A DNA stretch of 64,000 bases, from assembly GCA_964016885.1 (NCBI GenBank), contig OZ024741.1:326678001-326742000 (forward strand), given 5' to 3'. The translations under genes and the position numbers were made by a program. Of the stretch, positions 1-44,832 are shown in pieces. The notes under the pieces were generated by a model, which saw only the letters and a list, made by a program, of their open reading frames with translations, did not search any database and had not been told where the DNA came from. Source of the DNA: Eledone cirrhosa. Lineage: Eukaryota. Numbering within the stretch: the first letter of the stretch is position 1; each line of letters begins with the position of its first letter.

Positions 1-3000
1 TTGGATTTCCCGAATGTGCCAATGTGGATTTGGACAAATTGCATAGTGTTATCCAGATCATATCTAGATAGAGTATTTTGTAGGGAAATATATAGGTCTA
101 GCATAGGCTGTCCAAAGTTCAAGATAGTCAGCTACACGGACCACAAATTCGTGATCTGTGTGCTTGACTTAGATAGGCTTCATAGACGAGGACCCGGCTA
201 CTGGAAGCTAAACGCGTCCTTGCCAGCGCGCAAGGCCTACAGAGACCGGATTAGCGAACTAGTTAAGCAGGCGTTGACGGGGGCCATCGTCAACAACAAG
301 TGGTGGTTTGCTCTGAAAAGAGCGATTAGAATAGAATCGATTAGGTTTAGTAAGGCTTTAGCAATAGAGAAAAATAGAGCAGAAGGAGAACTAGTTAGAA
401 AATTAGACGAGGCGCTTAGCAAAGGCATTGCGACCGACGTGCTTGCGGCGAAATAGGCCCTTGACCAATTCTTCAATGCAAAGCACGAAGGCTGCGTTGT
501 CAGAGCAAGGGTGCGTGCTCTCAGACACGAGGGGACGAAAGCCGTTCAATGGGCCCGAGTGGCGGAGGCGCGTCGTGGCAACAAAGCCACGATCCCACCT
601 TTGGTGGACCACGACGGGCGCATGCTACTCGATCCCGGGCAAATGTGTGAAGCTTTTCAGCGATACTTCGATCAGTTGTTCGGGGGCAGCGGTGGGCCGG
701 GTCGAGGGATGAACTTTAGTGTCTACCTCGACGGACTGCCGCGGCTCTCGGCCACGGAGGCGAGGTGTTGCGAAAAGCCGATAACAGCCGCTGAAGTAAG
801 GGAGGCAATGACTGGCTGCACAAGGGGTAAATCGCCTGGTTTGGATGGTCTGCCCTATGAACTTTACGTACAGATGTCAGACTTGTTCGGAGGCCTCTTG
901 GCGGACGTCTACTGCAACTGGCAACAGAACGGGAGAATTCCCAATTCTGTGAGCCGACGAGCGGTGGCACTGCTGAGAAAGGATCCGAACAATGGGGATA
1001 ACATAGCTAATTTCCGGTCCATAACTCTGCTAAAGACAGAGTTCAAGATTTTGGCCAAGGTGCTAGCAAAGAGGGTGGCGCTTGTCGTTGGTGGTCTGGT
1101 GGGAGAGGCGCAGACATGCGCCATTCCCGACAGATCCATACACGACAACCTCCACCTCATGCGATACATCGTAGAGAGGGTAGCTAGGGAACCTGGCACG
1201 GGTGGGTCCTTGATCAATTTAGATCAGTCGAAAGCCTTCGATAGGGTCGACCATCGTTACCTAGCGGCAGTCCTGAGGGCGGCTGGCTTTGGGCCCGTCT
1301 TCAGAGGCTGGATCGCTGCCATGCACAGCGACATCTGCTCTGTGGTGCGAGCGAACGGTCACCTGTCGGAACCGTTCAACATCATGCGCTCGGTCCGCCA
1401 AGGATGACCCCTCTCGTCCCTCTTGTACGTATTGACTCTCGATCCATTACTGCACAAACTGGAGACGGTGAGGGGCGTCCCGCGCGAACTAGGATGCGGA
1501 AGATCCGTGTCAGCATATGCGGACGATGTCACCGTAGTGGTGTCGAACGCCAAACACATCGAGGTGATCGGCACTACACTAAGAGAATACGAAGTGGTGA
1601 CAGGAGCAATGATCAACCAGGAAAAGTCAGTGGGCCTGCAGCTCGGCACCTGGAGAGGCAGGTCCATGCCGTCCAACAGCGTCGTCGGACGCTGGATAGA
1701 CGGACTGGTTACATTGCTAAGGGTCTGTGTCGGTCCGGACCTCCAGACGGACAAAAACTGGGACGAGGTGATGAGCAGGGTGGCTTCTCTCACCCAGAAA
1801 TGGGCGGAGAGGAAGCTATCCCTGAAAGGTCGAGCGGAGGTGGCTAACGCGTACATCGCGTCATCATCTGCTACCGCCTGACCGTCGTACCTTTTCCTAA
1901 GCCTCGCCTGACTGCGCTGGAGCGTTTGCTCTTTCGCTTTTTGTGGAAGGGACGCGCTCCAATGGTCAGGCGGTCCATCTGTTGTCAACACCCGCTACGT
2001 GGAGGGCTGGGCATGCCGTGGCTGATGATGCGCAGGCACGCGTTCAGGCTACGACATATCCACCTCTTCCTCGACGGTGATCAGGTGTGGTCGCCGTTTG
2101 TTAGACACGTATTTCCCCAGCTCGTTTCCTTGACGGAGCTGCAGTCCTGGGTCAAGCGAAGACCGAGAAAGAGCGCCTGGAGACTGGAATGTCTTCAGGC
2201 GCTCACAGTCCTCGACCAATCGGGCAATGTGATCGGTGGAAACTCCACCTCGGCGTTCTATAGAGGATTAGTGGAGGGGAAGAGCGACGACGTACTTGGG
2301 GAAAATCTAGGCGTCGACGAAAATCAACTAGCCAATCTCTTCGGAAGAACTTTCGGGCCGGAGCCTATGGACAACTTCCAGAAATCTCTGGCCTGGCAGT
2401 GCTACCGAGGAGCCTTGCCAGTTCGGGATAAACTCTACAGCAATGGAGGTGCCGTCAGCCGGGCATGTCCGAGATGCGCGCAGGGTGACGAAACCGTCCT
2501 GCACGCACTCGTCCAGTGTCCGAAATGCTGACTTGTGGGTTTATGTCGAACACCTGCTGTCACGTGTAGGACGGATCCAGCTATCAGCTGAGTCCATCGT
2601 GAGGATTGCCCCGCCCTCTTCCTTTAGCCGGGAAGCGCAGGCAGTTTTTATCTGTCTGGTGGCCATGGCGAAAGAGATAGTATGGTGGAGACGTTTGAAA
2701 GGGCTGAAGACGAGCACTTACCTCTTCGGTGATGCCCGTATTAACTTTTTCAAATTTCATTTGAAAAGGAAAATGTGGGTAGAGAGGGAAGTGCTCTCTT
2801 CCCAGCATTTTGTTGAAAGATGGGTGAGAGAAGCAAGTATGGCCCGAATGAATGGGCCTTCTCTGAGTAGAGTATGTGTCTGTAAATTAAAGGTGGAAAA
2901 CTGGGAGAGGGCACTTGCCCTGGTGGTCAGGGTCACTGTGGCTTTTTAATGGTCTTTCTCCACCAATGTACCTCGGAAGTCTCCCCCCTATTGGGGAATT

Positions 3001-3135
3001 TTTCATTGTTCTATTATTACATCCTCTGTTTCTTGTTTTTTTACACGCATAAATGCCCATTTTTACCACCCTGTATTGTCCTGTACTGTCCTTAATGTCT
3101 ACTTTATGTAAACCCTTGTGGTTAATAAAGAAACC
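1..3135 (+). mobile_element. Tx1-type non-LTR retrotransposon, copy A (5' part outside window; ORF2 disrupted)
   Basis: ORF pieces 1-456, 511-1407, 1423-1881, 1926-2531 and 2443-2949 give the APE C-terminus (YLDR, YTDHK, GYWKLN), RT (KSPGLDG, LDQSKAFDRVDH, RQG, AYADD, GGLG) and a C-terminal CPRC..HALVQC knuckle. 3'UTR ends ccttgtggttaataaagaaacc followed by (ATT)n at 3136-3157. Confidence 0.95.
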
Positions 3136-3439: not shown

Positions 3440-3661
3440 TTATTATTGGCGACCTACGTAGGAAATCGTATTATCGTGAGCTCCACAAAGGTTTGTTGTT
3501 TTCAGTTGTTTAAAATTGCCATTTATGGAAAATCTTTATTGTTCATTGTTTATAAGTGCACATACATTGCTTTCTGAAAAGGACACTCAAAAAGATTGGG
3601 GCCTTGAACCGAAAATGTAAACTTTTATAATTATCAAACAAAAAATTTGTTTGAAAAAATC

Positions 3662-5382
3662 ATGGACGACTCACAGTTAGACCAAGCAGCTGAGAGCCTT
3701 CGTCACAAACTAACACCTCACACCAACATCACCATTGTAAATATTACTACGTTTGCCAACACTAAAAATATAAGCAGTAGCAATCATTTAAATTTGTCTC
3801 ATGCAGACATTCATTTTCCGCCATTACCAATGACTGCAGTTGTTGAAGCCGCCACCCCCACCACCACAACAGTGACAACAGAAACAAAAGAAAAAAATAA
3901 ATTATCTCGTGACATCGAAATGGACTGACGCCACCACCACCACAACTGAAACTAAAAATAACAATAACAAAAATAACGATAACAACAACAGCAACAATGA
4001 GAATAAGCAAACCCTGTCTTTTGCCAGAGTAGCCAAAAAGTGCGAAGCATTCCAGGTAACTCAGGAGGAATTAGAAGAAGCCAAGAAAATGGTAAAGAAA
4101 GATGGGTACAAGGTCAGCCTCACCTCCCCACCTAATACAATGGAGAATCGGCGCCTATTAACTGTGTCTTATCGGACGATTAACATAAAATCGCGCCGAG
4201 TGGAACGGGCATCCGAGTCCCAAATCCAAAAAGCTTTCGGACATGTGTGGGCGAAAAAACCCCACATCAGACGTGGGCAGAAATATGGAACCGTGGAAAT
4301 GTTCTTTGGAACACCACAGGAGGCCAGAGAACACTCCACGGCCCCATTAAGGAGTGACGACTTCACACTCGTCCCAAGCTATTGTGATCAGAGACTCGTG
4401 AAGTTCAGGGTAACCCACGTCCCACCGGCCATCGAAATTCCCTGGCTAATGGCTGCCGTCCTCGCCGGCATCGAGGCCAACACCAAGATAATCGAAATAG
4501 CAAAAGAAAAGCAGATCTGGTCCGGATCTGGGATGGAGCTCCTGATCCAAGCGGACGAAAAAAGCATTGAGGAGATCCCAGAGGTAATAGACCTCATTGA
4601 CGGTAGTCACCTCACCGTAATCGTCGAGGGCAGAAGGCCTAGGTGTGTCGTTTGTGGTGAAGGAACCCACCTAAGGGCTTTCTGCCCTCAGCCTAAAAGG
4701 TTGAGGCCACCTCTCTTACCCACCCCAGTGACTCAACCATCAACACCAGCAGCAGCAGAGATGGCAGCAAAAACAGAAGCAACTGTAACAGCAACAACCC
4801 CAGCAACAGTATCAAAACCAACACCACCACCACCCAACGCGCCAGTACTAGCAGCAGGGCCTACACCATCGACCACGCCACAACCAAAACCAACGCCTGT
4901 GGAGGATTTTCCACTCCCCTGCCTATCACAACTGGAGACATATTGTGACGACGAGGAGTGGGAAACGGTATCAGGAAAAAAGAAAAAAAAAAGAAACCAA
5001 AAAAGAAAAAAATTTCTTCCCACCCTCTCCAAAAACAAAATACAGAGGGGAAACAAATAAACTATCAAACAAAAAAGTTAGGACAGATATGCCTCCATCC
5101 ACACCAGCATCACCAACTTCATCACCACAAACACCATCACAATCACCATAATTAACCCCAACACCACCATCACCAATCCAAAAGTTCACACCACCTCCAC
5201 ACATACAAATCACTCACATCACACAGAAAACGTACACGACACTAAAACAAAAATTCCCCAAAGAAATCGGAGACTTCCGACAAGCATTCTCCAGGAGGAT
5301 TGAAAGGGACATCCTTCCGGAGGAGTCCACAAGCAGTGAAAAGGATGGACAAACCATCCTTCCTCTACGAGAAGTAAGGTAA
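3662..5382 (+). pseudogene. Tx1 copy B ORF1 (gag-like, frameshifted)
   Basis: ATG at 3662, Asn/Thr-rich linker, SFARVAK, central domain VSYRT..RVERA..RGQKYGTVE, CCHC knuckle CVVCGEGTHLRAFC, Pro/Thr-rich region, WETVSGKKKKK and C-terminal IGDFR motif; spread over several frames. Confidence 0.85.
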
Positions 5383-5416
5383 GTGGTCTTTCACATCTTT
5401 TCCATTCCATTTCAAC

Positions 5417-8288
5417 ATGACCTCACTCAGAATAGGCAGCATAAATGCGCGTGGCTTGGGATCGTCATGGAAGCAGAGCCACCTGCTCAACGACCTCAGG
5501 TCACTAAACATCACTCGCCATCAGCGAGACCAGAATCTCCGAAGCACGGGCCTTCGCACCGATCTTCGGCGGCTACGATGTGTACGCATCTCGAAGCCGT
5601 CCTGGATCGGGGGGAGGAGCTGCTGTGCTTTTTCGGAGAGGTATGGACCTCGACATACGGGCCATCTTCCTGGACCCAGAAGGTAAGTTGGTGGTGCTGG
5701 ACGTGACCAGCGAAGACGGGCAAGCTTTCAGGCTAGTGGCCGTCTATGCCCCGACAGGAGCAGGGAGGCCTGATTTCTTCCGGCGTTTGGAGACCTTTCT
5801 TGGAACGTCCAGCTCTTTAGTGTTAGTGGGAGACTGGATCGGGATCTTAGATTCACGCTGGGACTGTGTGGGATTAGCGGATAGGGGAGGAGGGTGAAAG
5901 AGCCTCACCAACCTGCTCAGGCGTTTTGAACTGTCTGACAGGTACCGATTGGATTTCCCGAATGTGCCAATGTGGATTTGGACAAATTGCATAGTGTTAT
6001 CCAGATCATATCTAGATAGAGTATTTTGTAGGGAAATATATAGGTCTAGCATAGGCTGTCCAAAGTTCAAGATAGTCAGCTACACGGACCACAAATTCGT
6101 GATCTGTGTGCTTGACTTAGATAGGCTTCATAGACGAGAACCCGTCTACTGGAAGCTAAACGCGTCTTTACCAGCGCGCAAGGCCTACAGAGACCGGATT
6201 AGCGAACTAGTTAAGTGGGCGTTGACGGGGGCCATCGTCAACAACAAGTGGTGGTTTGCTCTGAAAAGAGCGATTAGAATAAAGTCCATTAGGTTTAGTA
6301 AGGCTTTAGCAATAGAGAAAAATAGAGCAGAGGGAGAATTAGTTGAACCACGACGGGCGCATGCTACTCGATCCCGGCAAAACGTGTGAAGCTTTTCAGC
6401 GACACTTCGCCCAGCTGTTCGGGGGGCAGTGGCGGGCCGGATCGAGGGATGGACTTTAGTGTCTACCTTGACGGACTGCCGCGGCTCACGGCCAATGAGG
6501 CGGATTATTGCGAAAAGCCGATAACAGCCGCTGAAATACGGGAGGCAATGAGTGGCTGCACAAGGGGTAAATCGCCTGGTTTGGATGGTCTGCCAGACTT
6601 GTTCGGAGGCCTCTTGGCGGACGTCTACTGCAACTGGCACCAGAACGGGAGAATTCCCAGCTCTTGGAGCCGAAGAGCTGTGGCGCTGCTGAGAAATGAT
6701 CCGAACAAGGGGGATAACATACATAATTTCAGGCCCATAACTCTGCTAAACACAGAGTTCAGGATTTTGGCCAAGGTGCTAGCAAAGAGGTTGGCGCTTG
6801 TCGTTAGTGGTCTGGTGGGAGAGGGGCAGACGGGCGCCATGAAAAGCGACATCTGCTCTCTGGTGAGAGTGAACGGTCACCTTTCGGAACCGTTCAACAT
6901 CATGCGCTCAGTCCGCCAAGGATGTCCCCAATCGTCCCTCTTGTACGTATTGACTCTCAAGCCATTACTGCACAAACTGGAGACGTTGAGGGGGTCCCGC
7001 GCGAACTAGGATGCTGAAGATCCGTGTCAGCTTATGCGGACGATGTCACCGTAGTGGTGTCCAACGCCAAACACATCGAGGCGATCGGCACTACACCAAG
7101 AGAATACGAAGCGGTGACAGGAGCAATGATCAACCAGGAAAAGTCAGTGGGCCTGCAGCTCGGCACCTGGAGAGGCAGTTCCATGCCCTCCAACAGCGTC
7201 GTCGGGCGCTAGACGGACGAACCGGTTTAATTGCTAAGGGTCTGGTTAGGTCCAAATCTCCAGACGGACAAAAACTGGGACGAGGTGACGAGCAGGGTGG
7301 CTTCTCTCACCCAGAAATGGGCGGAGAGGAAGCTATCCCTGAAAGGTCGAGCGGAGGTGGCCAACGCGTACATCGCGTCCGTCATCTACTACCGCCTGAC
7401 CGTCGTACCTTCTCCTAAGCCCCGCCTGACTGCGCTGGAACGTTTGCTCTTTCGCTTTTTGTGGAAGGGACGCGCTCCGATGGTCAGGTGGTCAATCTGC
7501 CGTCAACAACCGCTACGTGGAGGGCTAGGAATGCCGTGGCTGATGATTCGCAGACACGCGCTCAGGATACGACATCTCCACATTTTCCTCGACGGTGATC
7601 AGGTGTGGTCGCCGTTTGCTAGAAGAGTCTTTCCCCAGCTCGTCTCCTTGACGGAGTTGCAGTCCTGTGTCAAGCGAAGACCGAGAGGGAGCGCTTGGAG
7701 ACTGGAATGTGTTCAGGCGCGCACAGCCCTCGACCAATCGGGAAATGTGATCGGTGGAAACTCCACCATGGCGTTCTATAGAGGATTAGTGGAGGGGAAG
7801 ACCGACGACGTACTTGGAGAAACTCTAGGCGTCGACGAAAGTCAACTAGCCAATCTCTTCGGAAGGACTTTCGGGCCGGGGCCTATGGACAACTTCCAGA
7901 AATCTCTGGCCTGGCAGTGCTACCGAGGAGCTTTGCCAGTTCGGGATAAACTCTACAGGCATGGAGGTGCCGTCAGCCGGGCATGTCCGAGATGCACTCA
8001 GAGCATCGTGAGGATTGCCCCGCCCTCTTCCTTTAGCAGGAAGGGCAGATCGTTTTTATCTGTCTGGTGGCCATGGGGAAAGAGATAGTATGGTGGACAG
8101 GTTTGAAAGGGCTGAAGACGAGCACTTACCTCTTCGGTGATGCTCTGATTAACTTTTTCAAATTTCATTTGAAAAGGAAAATCAGGGTAGAGAGGGAAGT
8201 GCTCTCTTCCCAGCATTTTGTTGAAAGATGGGTGAGAGAAGCAAGTATGGCCCGAGTGAATGGGCCTACTCTGAGTATGTGTCTGTAA
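5417..8288 (+). pseudogene. Tx1 copy B ORF2 (APE endonuclease-RT)
   Basis: MTSLRIGSINARGL start, GGGAAVL, VYAP, VGDW, RT motifs. Has stops, frameshifts and deletions relative to copy A near 6345, 6593, 6833 and 8000. Confidence 0.93.
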
Positions 8289-8521
8289 ATTAAAGGTGGA
8301 AAACTGGGAGAGGGCACTTGCGCTTGTGGTCAGGGTCACTGTGGCCTTTTAATGGTCTTTCTCCACAAATGTCCCTCGGAAGTCTCCCTCCTATTGGGGA
8401 ATTTTTCATTGTTATTTTTTGTTACATCCTCTTGTTTTTTTACACGCAGAAATCCCCATTTCTACCGTCCTACTGTCCTTAATGTCTACTTTATGTAAAC
8501 CCTTGTGGTTAATAAAGAAAG

Positions 8522-12503: not shown

Positions 12504-12629
12504 ATATATATACACACATAGACACATACATGTATATATACACGCATATACATATATATACACGCACATAAATATATACATACATACATATACATACATA
12601 TACATACATATAAACACACACATGTATAC

Positions 12630-12750
<121 letters not shown>

Positions 12751-14692: not shown

Positions 14693-14748
<56 letters not shown>

Positions 14749-26915: not shown

Positions 26916-26939
26916 ATTAACAACAATAATAATAATAAT

Positions 26940-29900
26940 GGTTTCTTTATTGGCCACAAGGGCTGACATCAATAAAAAACATCACAGACGGAACAGGACG
27001 GTACGGTGAGGGTTTTGTGCGTGTAAATATTTGTATTATTTATATAAGAAAAGAAAAAAAACATAAAACATATATAAATATAAACAATAAAATGAAAATT
27101 GAAACAATGAAAAATTCCCCAATAGGGGGGAAACCTCCGAGGGTTACTCGTGGCGAAAACCACACAAAAGACCACGGCCACCCCGACTACCAGGGCAAGC
27201 GCCCTCTCTCAATTTTTCCATCTCTCAAACTACAGACGCTCACCCCCCTTTCAACAAACTTGCTAGAAAGCAGCACTTGCCTCTCCACCCTGATAATCCT
27301 CTTGTGAAACTTGAAAAAGCTAATTAGGGATTCGCCGAAGAGGAAAGTGTTTGTCTTTAATCCTTTTAACCTTGTCCACCACACAATATCTTTCGCCATG
27401 GCCACCAGGCAGATGAAAACAACCTGCCCTTCCTCCTCGAAGGAAGACGGCGAGACCATCTGCACAATGGACTCAGTCGACAACCCGATCTGTCCCACAC
27501 GTGACAGCAACTGTTCGACATAGCTCCACAAGTCAGCAATGCTCGGGCACTGAACGAGTGCGTGCACAACGGTTTCGTCGCTATGCGCGCATCTCGGATA
27601 AGCTCGGCTGACGGCACTTCCATGCCTGTAGAGCTTATCTCGAACCGGCAGCGCCCCCGGTAGCACTGCCAGGCCAGGGATTTTTTGAAGTTATCCATAG
27701 GCCTCGGGCTGAAAGTTCTCCGGAAGAGAGCAAACATCTGATCTTCTTCGACGGCTAGGATCTCTCCGAGAATGTCGTCGCTCTTCCCCTCCACTAGTCC
27801 TCTATAGAACGCCGAGGTGGATGTTCCACCGATACTGGTGCCCAACTGGGAGAGGGCAGTGAGCGCCTGGAGACATTCCAATTTCCAAGCGCTATCCCTC
27901 GGTCCTTTTCTGACCCAGGACTGCAGCTCCGTCAAGGAGACGAGCTGTGGGAAAATGTGCCTGGCGAACGGCGACCACACCCGTTCACCATCAAGGAAGC
28001 ACCAGAGATGTCGCAGCCTCAGCGCATGTTTGCTCATCATCAGCCATGGCATGCCCAGTCCTCCACGCAACGGGTGTTGACAGCAGATGGATCGTCTGAC
28101 CATTGGAGCGCGTCCCTTCCACAAAAAGCGGAAGAGGAGGCGCTCCATTTTGGTGAGAGTTGGGCTGGAGCAAGGGACGACGGTGAGGCGGTAGCAGATG
28201 ACGGATGCGATGTACGCATTCGCCACTTCCGCCCGGCCTTTCAGGGACAGCTTCCTCTCAGCCCATTTCTGGGTGAGGGAGGCCACCCTGCTCGTCATCT
28301 CGTTCCAGTTTTTCTCCATCTGGAGGTCCGGTCCGAACCAGATCCCGAGCAATTTAACCGGTCCGTCCGTCCGACGCCCCACGACTCTGTCGGACGGCAT
28401 GGACTTGCCTCTCCAGGTGCCTAGCTGCAAGCCCACCGACTTTTCCTGGTTTATCTTTGCTCCTGTCACCGCTTCGTATTCCTTGAGAGCAGTGCCGAGC
28501 ATCTGGACGTGTCTGGTGCTCGACACCACCACAGTAACGTCGTCAGCGTAAGCCGACTCGAATTTCCCGTATCCTAGTTCGCGTGGGACGCCCCTCGTCG
28601 ACCCCAGTTTGTACAGTAACGTCTCGAGAGCCAATACGTACAAGAGGGACGAGAGAGGACAACCCTGGCGGACTCAGTGCATCATGCTGAACGGCTGCGA
28701 AAGGTGACCGTTCACCCTCACAACTGAGCAGATGTCGCTGTACATTGCTGCGATCCAACGCCTGAAAACGGGCCCGAAACCGGCTGCCTCGAGGACCGCC
28801 GCCAGGTACCGTTGGTCAACCCTATCGAATGCTTTGGATTGATCCAAGTTGATCAGGGCCCCACCTTTCCCAGGTTCCTTAACCACCCTTTCTATGATGT
28901 ATCGCATGAGGTGGAGGTTGTCGTGTATGGATCTGTCCGGAATGGCGCCTGTCTGCGCCTCTCCCACCAGACCCTTGACGACAAGCGCCAACCTCGTTGC
29001 TAACACCTTGGCCAAAATCTTGAACTCTGCGTTTAGCAGAGTTATGGGCCTGAAATTATCAATAATATCCCCCTTGTTCGGGTCTTTTCTCAGCAGCGCC
29101 ACTGCTCCCCGGCTCACAAAACTGGGAATGCTCCCGTTCTGCTGCCACTTGCAGTAGACGTCTGCCAAGAGGTCACTGAACAAGTCTGGCATAAATGCAT
29201 AAAGGTCGTAGGGCAGACCATCTAAACCTGGCGATTTACCTCTTGTGCAGTTAGCCATCGCTTCCCGTATTTCACCGGCTGTTATTGGCTTTTCGCAACA
29301 CTGTGCTGCGGTCGTCGAGAGCCGAGGCAAGCCGTCGAGGTATGCACTGAAGTCCATGCTCCTATCCGGGCCGCCCCCGCTCCCTAACAGTTCAGCAAAG
29401 TGCTGCTGAAAAGCTTCACATATCCGCTCGGGTTCGAGCATCACGCACCCGTTTTGGTCAGACAAAGACCGAATTGTGGCTTTGTTGCCACGTCACGCCT
29501 CTGCCACCCGGGCCCATTGGACGGCTTTTGTCCCCTCGTGATTCAGAGCGCGCGCTCTAGCTCTGACAACGCAGCCTTCGTGTTTTGCGTTGAAGAATTG
29601 GTCGAGTGCCAATCTCACCGCAAGCACGTCAGCTGCGATGCCTGTCCTAAACGCCTCTTCTAGCTTTCTGACTAGCTCTCCCTCTAATCTATTTTCCTCT
29701 ATCACTACTCCTTTGCTAAACCTAATCGACTCTACTTTAATTGCCCTTTTCAGGGCGAACCACCACCTGTTGTTGACGACCGCTCCCGTCAAAGCCCGCT
29801 TAACTAATACGCTAATCCGGTCTCTGTAGTTTGCCCGCCTGGAAAGACGCGTTCAGCTTCCAGTAACCAGGCCCTTGTCTATGAAGTCTGTCTATGTCGA

Positions 29901-32900
29901 TCTCACAGGTCACAAATCTGTGGTCTGTGTAGTCGACTATTTTAAATTGTGGACAACTTATACTAGCCTTATCTAGTTCCCTGCAGAATACCCTATCTAG
30001 ATACGATCTGGATGACCCCGATGCGGTTTGTCCATGTCCAGATTGGCACATTCGGGTCATCAAGTCGATACCTGTTAGACTGTTCAGAACGTCTGAGCAG
30101 GTTGGTGAGGCTCTTGCACCCTCCTCCCCTATCCACTAGCCCCACACGATCCCAGCGTGCATCCAAGATACCGTTCCAGTCGCCCACTAACACTAAAGAG
30201 CGGGACGTTCCAAGAAAGGTCTCTAGACGTCTGAAGAAATCTGGCCGTCCTTCCCCAGTTGGGGCGTAGACGGCTACTAGCCTGAAAGTATTGCCTTCGC
30301 TGCCGGTCACGTCCAGCACCACCGACTTACCTTCTGGGTCCAGGAAGATGGCCCGTATCGCGAGATCCAAGCCTCTCCGAAAAAGGACGGCAACGCCTCC
30401 CCCCGATCCTGGACGGCTGGGAGATGCGTATACATCGTAGCCGCCGAAGATTGGTGCGAAGGCCCGTGCCTCGGAGATTCTGGTTTCACTGATAGCCACC
30501 GCACCTATGTTTAGTGACCTGAGGTCATTGAGCAGGTGACCCTGCTTCCAAGATGACTCCAGGACACGTGCATTTATACTGCCTATTCTGAGTACAGCCA
30601 TGTTGGATGAGAAACGGGGCAAATGAGAGGAGTCACTTACCTTGTTCGTGTGATGAAGGGACAGTAGAACCGTCCCTTTCGCTGGTCATGGGTGTTTCCA
30701 AGAGGATGTCAGTGTATATCCTCTTGGTAACCGTCCCTCTGAAGTCTCCAACTGCGTTGGGGAATTTGTGTTTTAAAGGTTTGTACTGTTTGTACTATTG
30801 AGATTTCGATGATGCTTATGTTTGTCGGGAGAGTTCTTGGTGTTGGTGGGGTGTAGTAGTTTTTTTCCGTGATGTCTGTGTGCTGCTTTATATATTTTAT
30901 GAGTTCTTTTTTTGCTATGTTTATGGCTTTATACTTTTTTGGGGGAAGGGTGATTTTGTTGCCGTTTTCTTCTTGTTGCTGTTTGGTGTGTGTGTCTTGT
31001 TGTGTTTGTGTTGTTGGTGTTTGTGGTGGTGTTGCTGCAAGTTTCCTTGCTGCCTTTACCCCTCTTTGTATGCCTTCGCTTTTGGAGGGTGAATCTAAGG
31101 CTTTTTTTGTTTTTTGTTTTTTGTGGCAGACTGTTTGCCACGTCACTCCCGCCTCAAACACCATGTCGGATTCTGTGGCGTCTCGGAGGGGCATGTGCTC
31201 CACGGCTGCTGGTGGTGGTAGTGGAGCCCTCTTTGTCAATTTTGTTGCTGGTGTAGCTATTTCAAATGTAGCTATTGGTGTTGCCGCTACTGATGATGCT
31301 GCGTTAGTTAAACATGGCCTTGGTACGGGTGCTACGGACGTTGCCCTCCTACTCACCGTGGAAGGGGCTTCTTCGTTTGTTGCCTGTCCTGCTCTTGGTA
31401 GCATTGGACCAGGTATTGTAAGGAGAGGGGCCCTCTTCGGTGTCTTCTGCGGGCAAAAGGCCCTGAGGTGACCTTTCGACCCACAGAGATAACATTTTGG
31501 CAGTCTTCCTTCTACACTTATAGGGAGTTGGAGTCCTTCCTCAAAGTCTATGATATCGGGGATAGCCTCGATACATTCCTGGTCAGTTTGTATAAGCATT
31601 TGCATGCCTATACCTGACCAGTTCTCTCTCCCTATTTTTTCTACTTGCAGCTTGGTCGCCCTGTTCTCAATTCCAGCAAGGACAGACGTGGCCAGCCAAG
31701 GTATGGGCACGTCGTGTGATACCTGGGTCACTTTGACCCTCACAATTTTCTGCCCGCAGTAGGAGGGCACCAAGACTAACTCCTCACTCTTTAGGTTTCC
31801 AAAGAGTGGGACTTTGGGGTGTGGCTAAAAGTACGTCTACTGTGGCGTACTTTCTGCCTCGGGTGATGCGGGTTTTGCGTGCCCAGACGCACCCCAAGGC
31901 CTTTCAGATTTGAGCCTCCGTGGCTCTCTCCACTCGATGTGAGATTTTGCTTACGGTGCGATAAGTCACCGTCCGTAGCTACTGGTCCTTGAAAAAATCG
32001 GGTGGAGGTTTCAGGGAAACTCTATTTGCGCTTCTTGTCACCACGGCCCTTGCGACTGCCATCTCCTCCTCTGTGAGTAACACTGTCTCGATATTTTGGG
32101 CGACACCTGCAAAAGAAGTGGTCCCTTTTTCAACAGCACCACTATTGCTGCCGCTACTGGTCTTACTGGTGGTGCTGAGGTCGCTATTACAGCTTTCGGT
32201 GTCATTGTTGTTCTTTTCGCTGGTACAGTTGTTGGTGTTGTTTTCGTTGATACTGTTGCTGCTGTTACTGTTATTGTGGCTGTTGTTATTATTGTTGTTT
32301 TTGTTGATACTGTTCCTACTATTATTGTTGTTGTGACTGTTGTTATTGTCATTGTTATTGTCGTTCTCGACCTTACCGCTGTTATTTTTGTTATTGTCGT
32401 TCTGGACCTTACCGCTGTTATTTTTGTTATTGTCGTTCTCGACCTTACCGCTGTTATTTTTGTTATTGTCGTTCTCGACTTTACCGCTGTTATTTTTGAG
32501 TTGTTGTTGGTGATGTTGTTGGTGTTATTGTTGGTGTTATTGTTGGTGTTGTTTGTGTTAAAAATATTTGGTAATTTTAAATGTGTAACAATCTTTTTTT
32601 TCTTTGTAATATTTTCGTTTATATTTACCTCCGCTGGAAGCGTGTCTAGTTGACATGCTGATAAAGTCTCCCTCTCTCTGTGTTGTCTGACAGCGCTCTC
32701 TCTCTTTTTTGTGTTATCCATGTTGAAGTTTTTCAAAAAAAATATTTTTACACAAATACGAAAACGACACCCCGTAAAGGGCTAACGTATTATTTACTAG
32801 TGAACCCCTGTGTTAGGTGGGTCACTTCTTCTAAACTTTTATCAAATTTAAGACTTGAATAAAAGGTTTAGAACGGTTGAAATGAAGGTAAAACGTTGAA

Positions 32901-32934
32901 AAAAACTGGAGGCGAAAAGAAGCGTGGCTTCACC
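26940..32934 (-). mobile_element. Tx1-type retrotransposon, copy C (full length, disrupted)
   Basis: (AAT)n at both ends. ORF1 about 32721-30633 with CYLCGSKGHLRAFC; ORF2 from ATG 30601 (MAVLRIGSINAR, ISET, VGDWN, LDQSKAFD, AYADD, HALVQC); 3' end gcccttgtggccaataaagaaacc. Confidence 0.95.
32355..32497. repeat. 36-bp tandem repeat x4 in copy C ORF1 linker
   Basis: gttattgtcgttctcgaccttaccgctgttattttt repeated with period 36. Confidence 0.9.
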
Positions 32935-32967
32935 AACAATATTAATAATAATAATAATAATAATAAT

Positions 32968-33036: not shown

Positions 33037-36000
33037 GTTTTCTTTATTAACAACAAGGGTTTACATAAAGTAGACATTAAGGACAGTACAGGACAATACA
33101 GGACGGTACAAATGGGCATTTCTGCGTGTAAAAAAACAAAAACAGAGGATGTAACAAAAAAATAAACAATGAAAAATTCTCCAACAGGGGGGATACTTCC
33201 GAGGGACATTTGTGGAGAAAGCCCATTAAAAGGCCACAGTGACCCTGACCACCAGGGCAAGTGCCCTCTCCCAGTTTTCCACCTTTAATTTACAGACACA
33301 TACTCAAATATGCCCATTCACTCGGGCCATACTTGCTTCTCTCACCTATCTTTCAACAAAATGCTGGGAAGAGAGCACTTCCTTCTCTACCCTTATTTTC
33401 CTTTTCAAATAAAATTTGAAAAAGTTAATCAGGGCATCACCGAAGAGATAAGTGCTCGTCTTCAGCCCTTTCAAACGTGTCCACCATACTATCTCTTTCG
33501 CCATGGCCACCAGACAGATGAAAACTGCCTGCCCTTCCCGGCTAAAGGAAGAGGGCGGGGAAATCCTCACGATGACCTGCGCGCATCTCGGACATGCCCG
33601 GCTGACGGCACCTCCATGCCTGTAGAGTTTATCCCGAACTGGCAAAGCTCCTCGGTAGCACTGCCAGGCCAGAGATTTCTGGAAGTTGTCCATAGGCCCG
33701 GCCCGAATGTCCTTCCGAAGAGATTGGCTAGTTGATTTTCGTCTACGCCTAGAGTTTCTCCAAGTATGTCGTCGCTCTTCCCCTCCACTAATCTTCTATA
33801 GAACGCCATGGTGGAGGTTCCACCGATCACATTGCCCGATTGGTCGAGGGCTGTGAGCGACTGAAGACATTCCAGTCTCCAAGCGCTCCCTCTCGGTCTT
33901 CGGTTGACCCAGGACTGCAGCTCCGTCAAGGAGACGAGCTGGGGAAAGACGCGTCTAGCAAACGGCGACCACACCTGATCATATTCGAGTAATAGGTGGA
34001 GATGTCGTAGCCTGAGCGCCTGTCTGCGCATCATCAACCACGGCATGCCCAGCCCTCCACGTAGCGGTTGTTGACAGCAGATGGACCACCTGACCATCGG
34101 AGCGCGTCTCTTCCACAAAAAGCGAAAGAGCAAACGCTCCAGCGCAGTCAGGCGGGGCTTAGGACAAGGTACGACGGTCAGGCGGTAGTAGATGACGGAG
34201 GCGATGTAGGCGTTAGCCACCTCCGCTCGACCTTTCAGGGATAGCTTCCTCTCCGCCCATTTCTGGGTGAGAGAAGCCACCCTGCTCGTCACCTCGTCCC
34301 AGTTTTTGTCCGTCTAGAGGTTTCGACCGAACCAGACCCCTAGCAATTTAACCGGTCCGTCCGTCCAACGCCCGACGACGCTGTTGGACGGCATGGACAT
34401 GCCTCTCCAGGTGCCGAGCTGCAGGACCACTGACTTTACCTGGTTGATCATTGATCCTGTCACCGCTTCGTATTCTCTTAGTGTAGTGCCGATCGCCTCG
34501 ATGTGTTTGGCGTTGGACACCACTACGGTGACATCGTCCGCATATGCTGACACGGATCTTCCGCATCCTAGTTCGCGCGGGACCCCCTTCACCGTCTCCA
34601 GTTTGTGCAGTAATGGCTCGAGAGTCAATACGGACAAGAGGGACGAGAGCGGACATCCTTGGTGGACCGAGCGCATGATGTTGAACGGTTCCGAAAGGTG
34701 ACCGATCACTCTCACCAGAGAGCAGATGTCGCTGTGCATGGCAGCGATCCAGCCTCTCAAGACGGCCCCAAGGCTAGCCACCCTCAGGACTGCCGCTAGG
34801 TAACGATGGTCGACCCTATCGAAACTTTCAACTGATCTAAATTGATCAAGGACCCACCCGTGCTAGGTTCCCTAGCTACCCTCTCTACGATGTATCGCAT
34901 GAGGTGTAGGTTGTCGTGTATGGATCTGTGGGGAATGGCGCACGTCTACACCTCTCCCACCAGACCACCAACGACAAGCGCCAACCTCTTTGCTAGCATC
35001 TTGGCCAAAATCTTGAACTCTGTGTTTAGCGGAGTTCTGGGCCTGAAATTATCTATGATATCTCCCTTGTTCGGATCCTTTCTCGACAGCGCCACAGCTC
35101 CTCGGCTCACAGAGCTGGGAATACTCCCGTTCTGTTGCCAGTTGCAGTAGACGTCCGCCAAGAGGCCTCCGAACAAGTCTGGCGTCTGTACGTAAAGTTC
35201 ATAGGGAAGACCATCCAAACCAGGCGATTTACCCCTTGTGCAGCTAGTCATTGCCTCCCGTACTGCAGCGGCTGTTATCAGCTTTTCGCAACACTCCGCC
35301 TCAGTGGCCGATAGCCGCGACAGTCCGTTGTGGTAGACACTAGAGTCCATCCCTCGATCCGGCCCGCCGCTGCCCCCGAACAGCTGTGCGAAGTGTCGCT
35401 GAAAAGCTTCACTCACTTTCCCGGGATCGAGTAGCATGCGCCCGTCGTGTTCCACCAAAGACCGGATCGTGGCTTTTTTGCCACGACGCGCCTCCGCCAC
35501 TCGGGTCCATTGAACGGCTTTCGTCCCGTCGTGTCTCAGAGCACGATCACTAGCTCAGAGAACGCAGCCTTCGTGCTTTGCATTGAAGAATTGGTCAAGG
35601 GCCAATTTCGCCGCAAGTAAGTCGGTCGCGATGCCTTTGCAAAGCGCCTCGTCTAATTTTCTAACTAATTCCCCCTCTGCTCTATTTTTCTCTATTGCTA
35701 AAGCCTTACTAAACCTAATGGACTCTATTCTAATCGCTCTTTTCAGAGCAAACCACCACTTGTTGTTGGCGATGGCCCCTGTCAACGGCCGCTCAACTAG
35801 TTCGCTAATCCGGTCTCTGTAGGCCTTGCGCGCTGGTAAGGACGCGTTTAGCTTCCAGTAGCCGGGTCCTCGTCTATGAAGCCTATCTAAGTCAAGCACA
35901 CAGATCACGAATTTGTGGTCCGTGTAGCTGACTATTTTGAATTGTGGACAGCCTATGCTAGACCTATCTATTTCCCTACAAAATACTCTCTCTAGATATG

Positions 36001-38310
36001 ATTTGGATGACCCTATGCGATTTTTCCAAGTCCACATTGGCACATTCGCGAAATCCAATCGGTACCTGTTTGACAGTTCAAAACGCTTGAGCAGGTTGGT
36101 GAGGCTCTTGCACCCTCCTCCCCTATCCGCTAATCCCACACAGTCCCAACGTGCATCTAAGATCCCGTTCTAGTCGCCCACTAACACTAAAGCGCGGGAC
36201 GTTCCAAGAAAGGTCTCCAGACGCCGGGAGATATCAGGACGCCCTGCTCCTGTCGGCCACTAGCCTGAAAGCTTGCCCGTCTCCGCTGGTCACGTCCAGC
36301 ACTACCAACTTACCTTCTGGGTCCACGAAGATGGCCCGTATGGCGATATCCAAACCTCTCCGAAAAAGCAGGGCAACTCCACCCCCCAATTAGGACGGCT
36401 GGGAGATGCGTACACATCATAGCCGCCGAAGATCGGTGCGAAGGCCCGTGCTTCGGAGATTCTGGTCTCGCTGATGGCCACTACATCTATGTTTAGTGAC
36501 CTGAGGTCGTTGAGCAGTTGGCCCTGCTTCCATGACGACCCCAATCCACGCGCATTTATGCTGCCTATTCTGAGTGAGGTCATGTTGAAATGGAGTGGAA
36601 AAGATGGGAAAGACCACTTACCTTAGATGGTTTCTTCATCCCTTTTCACTTGATCGTCTGGTGAAGGGACCGTTGAATCGTCCCTTCGGCTGGCGTCGGC
36701 TCTTCTCTGAGTATATCCGAATATACTCTCCGGTTGAGTGTCCCTCCTAGGTCTCTGAAATCACCAACTGCGTTGGGTAATTTCATTTTAATGTTTGTGT
36801 ATTGTTTCTGTGATATTCTTACCAGTCTTATGTTCGTTGGTGTTTTGATTGGTGCTGGTATTATGTAGTTGTGCTGTGAAATGTCTGCGTGTTCAATTAT
36901 GTAAGTCATTAGTTTCTTGTTGTGTGTATTTATTGCTGTGCATTTCTTTTTCTGGCGGTGGGGTGTGGTTCTGCTATTTTCTTGTCGTTGTTGCTGGGTG
37001 TGTGTGTTTTGTTGTTGTGTTTGCGATGTTGGTGCTTGTGGTGGTGGTGTTGAAGGTGTTGTTGTTGTTGGCGGTGGGGTTGCCGCCGGTGGTTATGGTG
37101 GTGCTAGTGTGGGTGGTGATGGTGTTGGTGGTGTTGCTGCTGGAAGTCTCTTTGCAGTAACCTTTACCCTTTTTTCATTTCTTCCTGCGCTGCTTCTGCG
37201 TTTGTGCCTTCTTGCGACCTTTTGCCATCCCTCTCCCATCTCACACTCCATGTCCTATTCTGTGAGGTCGGGGAGTATACCAGCTCCAATCTTTCACTTG
37301 TTCTTGTTGGTTATGGTTGCAGTGGAGTCTTTGTTGCAGCTGCAGTTGGTATTACTGTTGTTGTTGTTAATACTTCCACTGCTGCTGTTGTTCTTGATTT
37401 TCGTGGCGTGGGTTTGGGTGCCACGGACCTATCCTTCCTGCTTGCCGCCTGTCCTGTTGCTGGCAGCAGTGGAGCCGGTTTCGGAAGGAGGGGGCTTTTC
37501 TCCTTTCTCAGGGTCTTCTCATTGCAGAAGGCCCTGAGGTGAGTCTTCGACCCACAGTGAAAGCATTTCGGGCGTTTGTCCTCAACACTTATGGGAAGTT
37601 GAGTGCCGTTATCGAAGTCCATCATATACGAGATAGCTTCGATGCACTCCTGGTTGGTTTGAATTAACATCTCAATGGAGCTGCCGACCCAATCTTCTCG
37701 TACTTTTTTCTGTACTTGCAGTAGAGTTGTTTTGTCCTCGATTCCGACGAGGAAAGACGCGGCTAGACAAGAAGGGGCCATCCGGGCATGTGTGTGTGTG
37801 TGGGGGGGGGGGGGGGGTCAGTTTGACCCTCACACTTTTTTGCCCGCAGTAAGAGGGCACCAACACCATTTCCTCGCTCGTTAGGGTCACTAAGGATTGA
37901 GTCTTTGCCTCCTGGGCTGTGGCAAAAAGCACGTCCACGGTGGCATATTTCTTGCCTCGGGTGATAAGCGTTTTCCGCTGCCACACAGACCCTAAGGCTT
38001 TTTGTATTTGAGCCTCTGTGGCCCTTTCAACCCTACGTGATTTGGTGCTTATTGTACGGTACGTGACCGTACAGTGCTGTTGGGTTTCGAAAAATGTTTC
38101 GACTGTCGTGCAGATTGCTCGGTGTCCGGTTTTCGTCACCACCTCCTTTGCTTCCTGTAATTTCTCATTTGTTTTAAGGATGGTTTCCAGGTTCTTTGCG
38201 ATACCTGCAAACGAGATTGGTTTTTCTTTCTTGTTGTTGCTGTTGTTATCGTCAGAGCTGCTGTTACTTTTGTTGTTGCTGCTGGTATTATGACCACCGC
38301 CGCCGCTGTG

Positions 38311-38344
<34 letters not shown>

Positions 38345-38947
38345 CTGTTTCTCCTGCTGCTGTTGTTGTTTATGCTGTTGCTGGTGATGTTGCGGCTGCT
38401 ACTAGTAATTTCCTTGTCACTGTTGCTGCTGTTATTACGGCTGCTGCTATTCTTCATGACGTCAGACGAATGAAATGGCTTTCCGTATTTACCGCACACA
38501 TTTTTCGTCGTTGTCGTCGTCGTGGAGAAATGTTCGACGGTATGCACGTTCTCTTGGTGAAAGCTACCAGAAGCTATCTTTTTCTTTTTCTTTAATCGCG
38601 CCGCTTGCGAAAGCGGCGACACCACATTTAGAGAAGGGAGGGAGAGAGACATTCTTCTCTCTGCTGTAATGACGATTGAGGAAGAAGAAGACGGAAAGAG
38701 TGTGAGTGACTTGTGAAAATTCTTTTTTGTAGCCATGTTTTTTTTTTTACGGTTTAAAATGAATATTGGGCACAAAACGCCAATAAGCGGTTATTTAACA
38801 CCGAAGGGCCAAATAACGGACAGAAAGACCCCTCTCATGAGGAAGGGGGTGTTTATCTACAATTTGGTTTTAAACGATTTACAATTGTTATGGCGGTTAA
38901 AAGTTACTATACCTTATAGAGCCGAGCCTCTGTCAACCATGGCATTC
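33037..38947 (-). mobile_element. Tx1-type retrotransposon, copy D (full length, disrupted)
   Basis: (AAT)n flanks. ORF1 from about 38736 with CFHCGSKTHLRAFC; ORF2 36583-33290 and 3'UTR very close to copies A and B. Confidence 0.95.
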
Positions 38948-38983: not shown

Positions 38984-38985
<2 letters not shown>

Positions 38986-41900
38986 TTTCATTTATTAGCC
39001 ACAAGGGCCGACATGTAGGGGACAATACAAAGACAGGGACAGTGGGTGTTTACAATAAAGTCGAGTAAAAGTGCACAATGGCAGGACTAATTTTATAATG
39101 GAGATATAAAAATATAAAATAAACTATGCATAAATATAACAAGATAAATTCCCCTCTAGGAGGTGGATGACCCAGGTGTGACTCAGGTACCTCACCAATC
39201 CTGAACCACCCTGCGCTTCTAGGGCACCCAGGGAGAGCACCCCTCTCCTCAAGTTAGCTAGCCTATAGGCGCATGGTCAGAGTGGGCCCATTCACACGAG
39301 CCATTCTCGCCACATTCATCCACCTGGGGGAGGGGGGACAGCACTTCCCTCTCCACCCTCACCTTCCTTTCCAGATGAAACTTGAAGAAGTTGATGAGAG
39401 ATTGGCCGAAGTGAAACGTCTGTCTTCAGTCCTTTTAATCTGGTCCATCATATAACCTCTTTCGCAACGGCCACCAGATAGAGGAAAATTTTCCCCTCTT
39501 CCTGACCTAAGGAAGGCGGCGGATCCATCTTCACTATGGACTCGGCGATAGCCGGATCCGTTCCACACGCGACAGTAGCTGATCGACATAACTTCGCGGG
39601 TGAGTAATGCACTGACATTGGACAAGTGCGTGCAGCACGGTTTTGTCGCTCTGTGCGTATCTTGGGCACGTCCGTCTGACAACACCTCCGTGCCTGTAGA
39701 GTTTATCCCGAACCGACAGAGCCCCCCCCCCCCGGTAGCACTGCCAAGCAATGGATTTTTGGAAATTGTCCATCGTCCCCGGCTCGAAAGTCCTCCTGTA
39801 CAGACTGGTCAGTTCGACTTCGTCGAGGCCCAAAGCTTCTCCGAGTGCGTCATCGCACTTGCCCGCCACTAATCCTCTATAGAATTCGAGAGTGGAAGTT
39901 CCACTGATCGCATTGCCCGCTTGGTAGAGGGCAGTGAGTGCCTGGCAACATTCCAGGTGCCAGTCATCCAGACTCGGTCTCTTCTTGACCCAGGATTGCA
40001 GCTCAGTCAAAGAAACGAGCTGCGGAAAGGCCCGTCTGATAAACGGCGACCACACTGTTCACCGCTTAGGCAAAATATCTTGAGATGTCACAGCCTCAGC
40101 GCATCTCTGCGCATTATTAGCCACGGCATGCCCAGCCCTCCGTGTAGAGGGTGCTGGCAGCAGATGGACCGCCTCACCAACGGAACTTGTCCTTTCCACA
40201 AGAATTTAAGAGGAGCCGTTCCAACTTGACGAGGCGCGGACCTGGGAAAAGCACGACGGTCAGGCTGTAGTATATGACGGACGCGATGTACGCATTCGCC
40301 AACTCTGCGCGACATTTCAGTGATAGCTTCCTCCCAGCCCATTTTTGGGTGAGACTGGCTACTCTGCTCGTTACCTCGTCCCAATTCTTTTCCACCTAGA
40401 GGTCTGGTCCGAATCAAACCCCGAGCAACTATACCGGTCCGTCCGTCCAGCGCCCCACGACGCTGTTTGACGGCATAGGCTTGCCTCTCCTGGTTCCGAG
40501 CTGCAAGTCCACCGACTTTTCCGGGTTAAGTTTGGCTCCTGTCAACCTTTCATATTCTTTCAATAAGGTGCCGACCACCTCGATTTCTGAGGTGTCCGAC
40601 TTTCCACGTCCCGGTCCGAGTGGGATGCCCTGCAACAGCTCCAGCTTCCGCAGTAAAGGCCCGAGAGTCAATACGTACAGAAGGGAAGATGAGGGCACCC
40701 TTGACGGACCGACCGGGAGAGCAGAAATGGTTCCGAGAGGTGGCCATTAACCCTGACCACCGAGTGTGTGCCGCTGTGCATTGCAGCGATCCAGCTTCTG
40801 AAGACAGGGCCGAAGCCAGGTGCTTTGAGGACAAACTCCAGATACCGATGGTCGACCCTATCGAATGCTTTCGATCGATCTAAATTTTTCAGTGCCCTAC
40901 CGAAGCCAGGTTTACACCCTACCTTTTCTATGATGTATCGCATGAGGTGGAGATTGTCGTGTATGGACCTGGCTGGGATTGCACAAGTTTGCGCCTCCCC
41001 AACCAAATTCTCGACGACAAGCGCCAATCTCTTTGCTAACACTTTGGCCAAAATCTTAAACTCTGTGTTGAGCAGAGTTATGGGCCTGAAGTTGTCTAAT
41101 GTATCCCTCTTGTTCTCGTCTTTCCTTATCAGCGTCACCACTCCCCTGCTCACAGAACTGGTTATACTTCCATTCTGCTGCCAGTTGCAATAGAGTGCTT
41201 CGAGGAGATCGGAAAACAAGTCTTACGTAAACATATAGGGCAGGCCATCCAAACCGGGTAACTTGCGCCTCATGCAGCCGACAAGGGCGTCCTGAATTTC
41301 GGCTGAAGTAATCGGCATTTCGCAGCCCTCAGCCTCGACCGTCGAGATGCGCGGCAAGCCGTCGAGTTAGGGACTCAAATCCGCTACTCTCTCTGACTCG
41401 CCACTCTCCCCGAACAACCGACCAAAGTGCTGGCGAAAGGTCTCACACATCCACTTGGAATCGCTTATCTCGTGTCCGTCACGGTACGCCAAAGACCGAA
41501 TTGTGGTTTTATTACCACGGTGCGTCTCCGCCACGCGGGCCCACCGATCAGCTTTGGTTCTCTCGTTTCTCAGCGCACGCGCCTTAGCTCTGACAATGCA
41601 ACCTTCGTGTTTCGCATTGAAGAAATGGTCTAACGCCATTCTCGCCGCTAGCACGTCAGTTGCAATTCCACAACAAATAGCCTCGGTTACTTATCTACCA
41701 GCTCTCCCTCTTTTCTATTTTTCTCTAACGCTAGTTCTTTGCTGAACTCTCTTTTGAGAGCCTCCTTACCATATGTGTTGGTGATCTCCCTTGTCAACTT
41801 TTGCTTAACTAGATTGTTGACTCGGTCCCTGTAAGCCTTACGTGCCGGAAAGACATGTTCAGCTTTCAGTAACCCGGTCCCAACCTACGCGTTTTATCTC

Positions 41901-44828: not shown

Positions 44829-44832
44829 AATA

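Follow-up and report, generated by a model that had tools for sequence, protein, structure and literature searches.

A U1-complementary splice-donor-like motif is conserved at the ORF1/ORF2 boundary of microsatellite-inserted LINEs in Eledone cirrhosa

The 64,000-nucleotide stretch of Eledone cirrhosa DNA analysed here (the window) contains a series of LINE copies, designated A to E. Element A (1..3133, plus strand) is the 3' part of a B/D-type copy cut at the window edge; it matches PF00078 and PF13966 and has no ORF1/ORF2 junction in view. Element B (3448..8520, plus strand) has full-length ends, internal deletions in ORF2 and (ATT)n on both flanks. Elements C (26928..32937), D (33037..38947) and E (38984..44829) are on the minus strand and are full length with broken frames. 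The ORF2 pieces of C match PF03372 and PF00078, and D combines a D-type 5' end and ORF1 with a B/D-type ORF2. No Rfam families were found within the window. The elements and their relatives are ~6-kb APE/RT LINEs with two ORFs, a poly(A) signal, a repeat tail and no LTR, inserted in microsatellites that are (ATT)n on both flanks for families B, C, D, E and G and (TCTA)n for F, H and I. ORF1 is a separate open frame of 580-715 aa with visible CCHC spacing; PF00098 was detected in family I only, at E = 0.019, and not in D. ORF2 of D, F and H contains PF03372, PF00078 and PF13966 (zf-RVT below cut-off in F and H), and the closest solved structures to its endonuclease are L1 endonucleases. Two ORFs, an APE, RT and zf-RVT layout and microsatellite targeting resemble the Tx1 group of L1-clade LINEs and fit a putative Tx1 assignment based on domain layout and targeting.

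The donor-like motif AG/GTAAGT (AGGTAAGT) is located where the original prediction had placed it, at 5377-5384 in element B on the plus strand and at 30642-30635, 36623-36616 and 42643-42636 in C, D and E on the minus strand. The GT of element B (5379-5380) runs into the ORF1 stop TAA (5380-5382) inside the motif, the ORF1 frame being taken from relatives L034, L036 and L073-L101, and the ORF1 end Gly-Lys-TGA spans the motif in C. The frames previously read at these two sites (Arg-TAA in B, Gly-Lys-TGA in C) are the same in less broken relatives. All four donors are followed by a pyrimidine-rich spacer and CAACATG, which in B occupy 5385..5419 with the ORF2 ATG at 5417-5419; the ORF2 ATGs of C, D and E are at 30601, 36583 and 42604. 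The GT-to-ATG distances of 38, 39, 38 and 37 nt are correct for the window, but the fixed 37-39 nt spacing proposed from them was rejected, as families run from 28 to 53 nt. The four motifs are present, but they represent three independent junctions and not four, because B and D are 92% identical from the donor onward and share one junction type. The D copy in the window reads AG/GTAAGT, whereas most D-family copies read CG/GTAAGT. The window holds nine AGGTAAGT matches against 2.4 expected and none of 100 shuffles reached nine, but this excess is not independent evidence because the hits are repeat copies. The remaining matches are two antisense sites and three sites inside ORF2 (5681..5688 on the plus strand in B; 30332 and 36315 on the minus strand) that encode Glu-Gly-Lys. 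The ORF2-internal sites were rejected as functional donors, being a codon by-product that varies within B/D.

Conservation of the motif extends to nine families. GGTAAGT is found 28-46 nt upstream of the ORF2 start in eight of them, and GGTAATT 53 nt upstream in the ninth; family G has lost +5G and has a perfect CAG on the exon side. Among 180 loci, taken motif-blind as the best 30 of each of six ORF2 protein searches with a few places counted twice, GGTAAGT occurs at -62..-21 in 159 and with one mismatch in a further 14. The ORF1 cores are only ~30% identical between families (30-34% for D versus E/F). Six deep families show no variation in any of the seven columns -1..+6, compared to 48 invariant columns among 200 fourfold ORF2 sites, which corresponds to a chance of 0.24^7 = 5e-5, or 3e-3 allowing 60 positions. 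At the GT, ORF1 is in phase 2 in B, D, F, H and probably G, in phase 1 in C and older E, and in phase 0 in young E and I, and in every family the ORF1 stop either overlaps the GT or follows it. Across the nine families, therefore, the motif is conserved and ORF1 codon or stop context does not explain all of it. The proposal that conservation acts at the nucleotide or RNA level stands, with the motif present in all three ORF1 frames and its conservation stopping exactly at the edges of the U1-pairing window.

Relatives outside this genome were not found in metagenome and viral contig scans, and an ORF1 word search gave no matches. The outside ORF1 homologues P0013 and P0021 (GAB1605864.1, Argonauta hians) end in Gly-Lys or Gly-Lys-Ser at the protein level, which is what a phase-1 donor predicts. 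Six other homologues (P0012, P0035, P0039, P0081, P0109 and P0126) keep the C-terminal domain and do not have the predicted end residues; the relatives of P0012 and P0039 in this genome are only 27-36% identical.

The motif is complementary at -3..+6 to the 5' end of the U1 snRNA from this genome. Pairing extends over 8-9 contiguous base pairs in eight families and over 7 contiguous plus 2 in G. Among the 223-327 GT sites of each element it ranks first for U1 strength in seven of nine families, and an equally good site occurs in just 4 of 889 other 43-nt windows. Conservation that spans nine families, is independent of frame and matches U1 points to RNA-level selection, most likely for U1 binding, with binding itself deduced from the pairing.

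The favoured explanation, which we place somewhat short of an even chance, is that splicing from this donor excises ORF2 from a share of the RNA to yield an ORF1-only mRNA. The U1-complementary donor at the end of ORF1 would be used in a fraction of transcripts and joined to an AG that coincides with the ORF2 stop or follows it, presumably not the same AG in all lineages, and a local hairpin may damp its use. The spliced RNA would serve as ORF1-only mRNA, and the unspliced RNA would make ORF2 protein and be copied into the genome. The likely gain would be a shift in the output of each transcript from endonuclease towards ORF1 protein. Because the ORF1 stop is at or behind the GT, the spliced RNA would retain nearly all of ORF1 and terminate in the last exon. 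Under the exon-junction rule a stop in the last exon avoids nonsense-mediated decay, and the spliced RNA would thus escape it. The need for splicing would be weaker than in single-ORF copia because a bicistronic LINE probably already overproduces ORF1. Bound U1 may additionally protect the full-length RNA, as in the Arabidopsis Ty1/copia element EVD, for which both splicing and protection are documented. Of the interpretation originally offered, nucleotide-level conservation fitting U1 pairing is upheld and removal of ORF2 stays putative. Neither donor-based ORF2 splicing nor U1 protection was found for Tx1 elements in the literature searched.

Candidate acceptors were scored crudely and are present in every family at different places. 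No single acceptor position is conserved across the nine families, nor is the best candidate in the 3' UTR. By this crude score, which U-rich UTRs inflate, seven of nine elements have a 3'-end AG among their five best of ~260, whereas in C and F the highest-scoring one comes only 21st and 24th, respectively. An acceptor-like TAG/G is present at the ORF2 stop in E (TAG at 39263..39265, minus strand, then G), E2, F, H and I. Families B, D and G have no TAG at the ORF2 stop and have an AG ~175 nt beyond it, a position where C and F have none. The candidate acceptor in the 3' UTR of element B (8442..8449, plus strand) consists of a U-run followed by ACACGCAG, and the same putative site is present in D (33122..33129, minus strand). 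As a universal acceptor ACACGCAG was rejected, since it belongs to a TTTACAC/TTTACTC motif that has no AG in C, E and F.

The original prediction called for copies lacking ORF2 exactly from the donor, and none was found among the genome's junction copies in the searches run. No spliced retrocopy was detected against more than 6,000 unspliced copies, with intact junctions numbering 4096 in B/D, 577 in F, 493 in C and 864 in H. The patterns used required an exact 20-22-nt exon side plus two changed positions; they would overlook about one arbitrary acceptor in five in B/D and about one in two in the other families, left out G, E2 and older E, and had no denominator for E. Hits with changed bases after the exon side numbered 9+15 in B/D, 12 in F, 6 in C, 1 each in E and H and 0 in I, and none was spliced. 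In L238 the donor is joined to ORF2 with one G missing relative to a clean splice, and in L112/L281 CG precedes the join site; both were counted as microhomology deletions. LINE proteins show cis preference for their own RNA, so missing retrocopies weigh less for an RNA without ORF2. In human L1, by contrast, spliced copies make up about 2% of young full-length elements (PMC5860796). Contigs of four runs were aligned to the D copy L031:1836-7865. Those of the single run tentatively classed as RNA (share 0.07) do not reach the donor bin, and among the 15 joints listed, with 40 more unlisted, none begins at the donor. One GT..AG joint at 2813-3063, from a run of unspecified kind and enclosing unspecified sequence, lies in ORF1. 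These alignments are evidence neither way.

The main rival proposes that U1 docks with little splicing and keeps the transcript from being cleaved and polyadenylated too early, within the A-rich 3' half of ORF1, allowing ORF2 to be transcribed. We consider it unlikely. Every U1-match observation applies to it, the unconserved acceptor and missing spliced retrocopies are accounted for, and the benefit would fall in cis on the RNA that gets copied. The 5' half of the element is 36-40% A, with AATAAA or ATTAAA at most 500 nt upstream of the donor in six of seven copies. There are two precedents: U1 bound at the major donor of HIV-1 and foamy virus suppresses a nearby poly(A) site, which in HIV-1 lies upstream of the donor (PMC12789967), and U1 at the EVD donor permits splicing and blocks premature termination (PMC5580714). 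However, hexamer numbers are near chance at 38% A and hexamer use is putative, the C copy has no upstream hexamer, and ORF2 of B, D, F and H has none, which leaves little downstream to suppress. Some splicing would also be expected from a perfect donor that is followed by many usable AGs.

It is improbable that the motif and spacer form a TURBS-like hairpin or protein site for ORF2 re-initiation and that the likeness to U1 is incidental. The motif always precedes the ORF2 start at 28-53 nt and is followed by an unstructured spacer and a strong start context; in 11 natural copies the pyrimidine content of the spacer is 74-81%. Base pairing over the donor is predicted for every family, a point that also speaks against its use in splicing. 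In C, a predicted 9-bp hairpin (30618..30641, minus strand; arms 30641-30633 and 30626-30618) covers it, its partner arm carries only wobble or Watson-Crick changes in 30 of 34 copies, and the fold has z = -3.3 to -3.9 in three C-lineage copies. Young family I has no ORF2 AUG and probably starts ORF2 at AUA, a -1 frameshift being the alternative; this points to re-initiation, which has been proposed for L1 (PMC5972666). A cis element near the stop/start and tolerance of a non-AUG start are also features of calicivirus TURBS, SART1 and L1 ORF2. However, only C outfolds shuffles, and a single conserved hairpin was rejected because stems differ between families. Unlike TURBS, the nine families have no UGGGA within 120 nt upstream of ORF2. 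Pairing with 18S rRNA was rejected: the 18S of this genome has no exact complement of GGTAAG or GTAAGT, and its 2868 nt contain three wobble-only 7-mers, a chance-level number. Start distance and stop position vary, whereas conservation ends exactly at the U1 window.

That the motif has no function and is a leftover of an ancestral Arg-stop context (AGG TAA G) still awaiting decay is quite improbable and largely refuted. Phase 2 (Arg-TAA) is the commonest and is probably ancestral on an ORF2 tree that holds families of this genome only; it fixes TAA and favours a purine after it. The nine families also descend from one ancestor in one genome, and G has lost +5G. The motif nevertheless outlasted at least three moves of the stop off TAA (C, E and I) and was kept through ~0.7 changes per fourfold site between lineages. 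Positions +5 and +6 are non-coding in phase-2 families, yet +6 is invariant and +5 is kept in eight of nine families, and the four positions outside TAA alone give 0.24^4 = 0.003. A short splice across the junction to give a fused protein is very improbable, as the in-frame AGs 52-67 nt downstream, after the pyrimidine tract, in B, D, G, C and older E are Arg/Ile-Gly codons belonging to the conserved LRIG motif, no in-frame AG is usable in young F, young E or I, and copying in cis would be expected of an ORF2-producing RNA but no intron-less copies were found with patterns that omitted one AG for B/D and one for C.

The removal of ORF2 by splicing would have its closest counterpart in Ty1/copia elements (EVD shGAG, Drosophila copia), where a conserved U1-matching donor closes the structural-protein region and the acceptor is less well defined (PMC5580714). 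The ~3.5-kb intron predicted here is similar in size to that of Drosophila copia (~3 kb). Those elements have LTRs and one gag-pol ORF that acquires its stop through splicing, in contrast to a bicistronic non-LTR LINE with putative splicing or protection. It is possible, though doubtful, that a LINE lineage independently evolved a copia-type U1 switch in which ORF2 is cut out, bound U1 shields the full-length RNA and host splicing sets the activity of thousands of young copies. Human L1, also of the L1 clade, has functional splice sites (SpORF2, SpIREs), some kept for tens of millions of years; the donors described in the available text (PMC2896524, PMC5860796) are in the 5' UTR and remove 5' UTR/ORF1 while keeping ORF2, unlike the putative donor at the ORF1/ORF2 boundary. 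Retroviral major donors are likewise strong donors within an RNA needed unspliced, but they are promoter-proximal and feed env and accessory mRNAs, whereas this one is ~2.2 kb from the start of the element, where ORF1 ends.

Only LINE RNA that has escaped splicing can be copied. The persistence of a strong donor at the same location, despite deep divergence and several frame changes, is therefore paradoxical and suggests selection for a regulatory step. If spliced, the RNA would be the LINE counterpart of spliced gag mRNA, and tissue-specific splicing would be a handle on an abundant, recently active element. If it is only protected, U1 telescripting would be built into a LINE. Octopus vulgaris is reported to have 13 recently active L1-Tx1 families (PMC13282606), and the main text of that article contains no word beginning "splic". 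Thousands of scattered strong donors could capture host splicing. Exact junction copies in the young, near-identical families number 864 in H and 621 in I.

Five copies of a non-LTR retrotransposon of ~6 kb lie in the window, all with (ATT)n at their boundaries; three of them form a tandem run. Intact natural copies encode an ORF1 of 580-715 aa and an ORF2 of ~1140 aa, the latter carrying APE, RT and zf-RVT domains; L1 enzymes are nearest to the endonuclease among solved structures. Named homologues occur in Octopus sinensis, O. bimaculoides and Argonauta hians, which makes an octopod host likely. Searches of the species' own 3.0 Gb genome with ORF2 N-termini gave ~12,000-28,000 first-look candidates. 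Divergent queries and neighbouring stretches added five families or subfamilies (E2, F, G, H and I) to those lettered after the window copies, and F, H and I are located in (TCTA)n. Layout and targeting fit Tx1. Tx1 is described as a subgroup of L1 (PMC5203782), and L1-Tx1 elements are described from O. vulgaris (PMC13282606).

The donor-like motifs at the ORF1/ORF2 boundary, their GT-ATG distances, the spacers and the CAACATG starts were confirmed in the window sequence. The motif is present in all four copies of the original prediction, but B and D have one junction type, so the window holds only three independent examples. The AG preceding GT also holds in the window, but is CG in most genomic D copies. 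The 37-39 nt spacing is not fixed: GT lies 28 (H), 35 (I), 37-40 (B, C, D, E, E2), 45-46 (F) or 53 nt (G) from the ORF2 start. The exact 7-mer GGTAAGT is found in 159 of 180 loci taken by protein search and carries one mismatch in 14; deletions, 5'-truncated insertions and double mutants account for the remaining 7. In a GT-anchored alignment the six deep families have in common GGTAAGT and one other column of 60, and G reads GGTAATT with a CAG exon side. Between deep branches, identity is 66-75% for ORF2 and 51-57% at fourfold sites, where 48 of 200 columns are invariant across the six deep families; between the ORF1 core of D and the cores of E and F it is only 30-34%.

GT falls in ORF1 phase 2 (Arg-TAA) in B, D, F, H and probably G, in phase 1 in C, older E and E2, and in phase 0 in young E and I. 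Placed on the ORF2 tree, these phases indicate that the stop moved off TAA at least three times. Codon/stop context thus fails to account for the motif, which upholds conservation at the RNA level. Evidence from beyond this genome is indirect: homologue P0013 ends Gly-Lys and P0021 (GAB1605864.1, Argonauta hians) Gly-Lys-Ser; the predicted ending is absent from six other outside homologues keeping the C-terminal domain. We regard the motif as genuine, under selection and U1-matching, placed where ORF1 meets ORF2 in an octopod Tx1-like lineage.

The genome's U1 genes were located, and the proposed complementarity holds: the U1 5' end pairs with the site of every family. Ranked by duplex energy among all sense GT sites, it comes first in seven elements (B, C, E, E2, F, H, I), second in D and fifth in G; the copies of G and E2 were partial. 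Of 889 other windows of 43 nt, just 4 contain a site with 8/9 U1 matches. All 11 copies folded give a predicted hairpin over the donor-like site; its stems differ between copies, and only in C does it fold better than shuffles. Among 34 C copies the partner arm mostly shows changes between wobble and Watson-Crick pairs, one pair is broken in 4 copies, and no two-sided (compensatory) change was seen.

Our tentative preference, somewhat short of an even chance, is for a working donor that would remove ORF2 from a fraction of RNAs. The GT lies at the place that this requires, after nearly all of ORF1 and ahead of the point where ORF2 begins; in every case the ORF1 stop is on the putative intron side. 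Candidate acceptors are a U-run plus ACACGCAG at the 3' end in B, D and G, and TAG at the ORF2 stop, followed by G in E, E2, F, H and I and by T in C. On a crude home-made score over ~260 downstream AGs, 3'-end candidates reach the top 5 in 7 of 9 copies, but rank 21st in C and 24th in F. The extra AG occurs in the same lineage that lost TAG at the ORF2 stop, a single event. Zebrafish ZfL2 LINEs have functional splice sites.

Retrocopies were sought genome-wide as an intact exon side with two changed bases behind it. Matches numbered 9 and 15 (partly identical loci) for B/D, 12 for F, 6 for C, one each for E and H and 0 for I; intact junctions numbered 4096 (B/D), 577 (F), 493 (C) and 864 (H). 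All matches were rejected as spliced copies, being point changes, small indels, microhomology deletions or rearrangements. Copies lacking ORF2 exactly from the donor, raised by the original prediction, were thus not found with these patterns in B/D, F, C, E, H or I. This weighs less against an RNA without ORF2 because such RNA would need ORF2 in trans, and LINE proteins prefer their own RNA in cis.

The main rival, compatible with a working donor and given about one chance in four, is that U1 suppresses poly(A) signals in the tail of ORF1, which is A-rich; a poly(A) hexamer lies within 500 nt upstream in 6 of 7 copies. In EVD the donor serves splicing and also prevents premature termination (PMC5580714). 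A translation element is improbable; the exact complement of the motif is absent from the genome's 18S. TURBS, SART1 and L1 re-initiation are covered in PMC5972666. Neutral retention is slightly less probable again. The absence of spliced retrocopies among the genome matches searched argues against a mini-intron fusing ORF1 to ORF2, which is very improbable.

Related systems are SpIREs, at about 2% of young full-length human L1 (PMC5860796), SpORF2 (PMC2896524), and HIV-1 and foamy virus donors (PMC12789967). As originally supposed, no account of Tx1 elements or other LINEs with a conserved donor between ORF1 and ORF2 was found in literature mostly outside subscription journals and Repbase reports. 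The boundary element may act as a control of an already known kind, in an element class for which this literature gave no description of it.

Donor-like motifs also occur in the first 70 nt of elements elsewhere in the genome: CCG before GTAAGT at +25 in F (L201; 8/9 matches), and weaker ones in H (L217), I (L215), B (L036), D (L031) and E (L103). In E, E3 and G a pyrimidine tract and TAG directly precede the ORF2 ATG; together these features could give an SpORF2-like mRNA. Residues ~43-102 of P0005 (XP_036360308.1, an O. sinensis 'tectonic-3-like' model) are a piece of this endonuclease that stops at LDPE, the place of an ORF2-internal donor-like site, possibly by exonisation or annotation artefact.

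In young family I, ORF2 has no AUG and its frame begins with an ATA in good context (L215:2397-2420 (+); L293-L312) that overlaps the TAG stop of ORF1; Met first occurs at residue 35, beyond the first endonuclease motif. ATA is present in 100 of 100 among the matches listed, from 621 genomic matches, which suggests AUA re-initiation or a -1 frameshift. In H (L217:3255-8465 (+)) and young E (L103:3820-3834 (+)) read-through would fuse ORF1 and ORF2, because they share a frame with a single stop between them (TAA and TAG, respectively).

Different families lie head to tail in one microsatellite and so build up mixed tandem arrays (window 26928-44829; L042, L200, L202, L207), and the target splits by branch, (ATT)n in one and (TCTA)n in the other. 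G joins a B/D-like ORF2 to its own ORF1 end, and L118 has a C-like spacer after a D-like ORF1 end. Copies with B, D, G, C and E2-type junctions (L118, L135, L220) thus combine ORF1 types and ORF2/junction types in different ways, pointing to recombination between families. Families share 3' UTR blocks (e.g. window 8300-8516), namely CCCCTATTG(G/A)GGA, TTTACAC/TTTACTC, TGTAAA and CCCT(T/A/C)GTGG-NN-AATAAA, which are likely 3' recognition or poly(A) elements. The window also holds very long (TA)n arrays at 52101-54063 (1.96 kb) and 57456-58108 (0.65 kb), and the 18S rRNA match L317 (G000:C25:22125279-22128146) is ~2870 nt long, compared with 1831 positions in the model.
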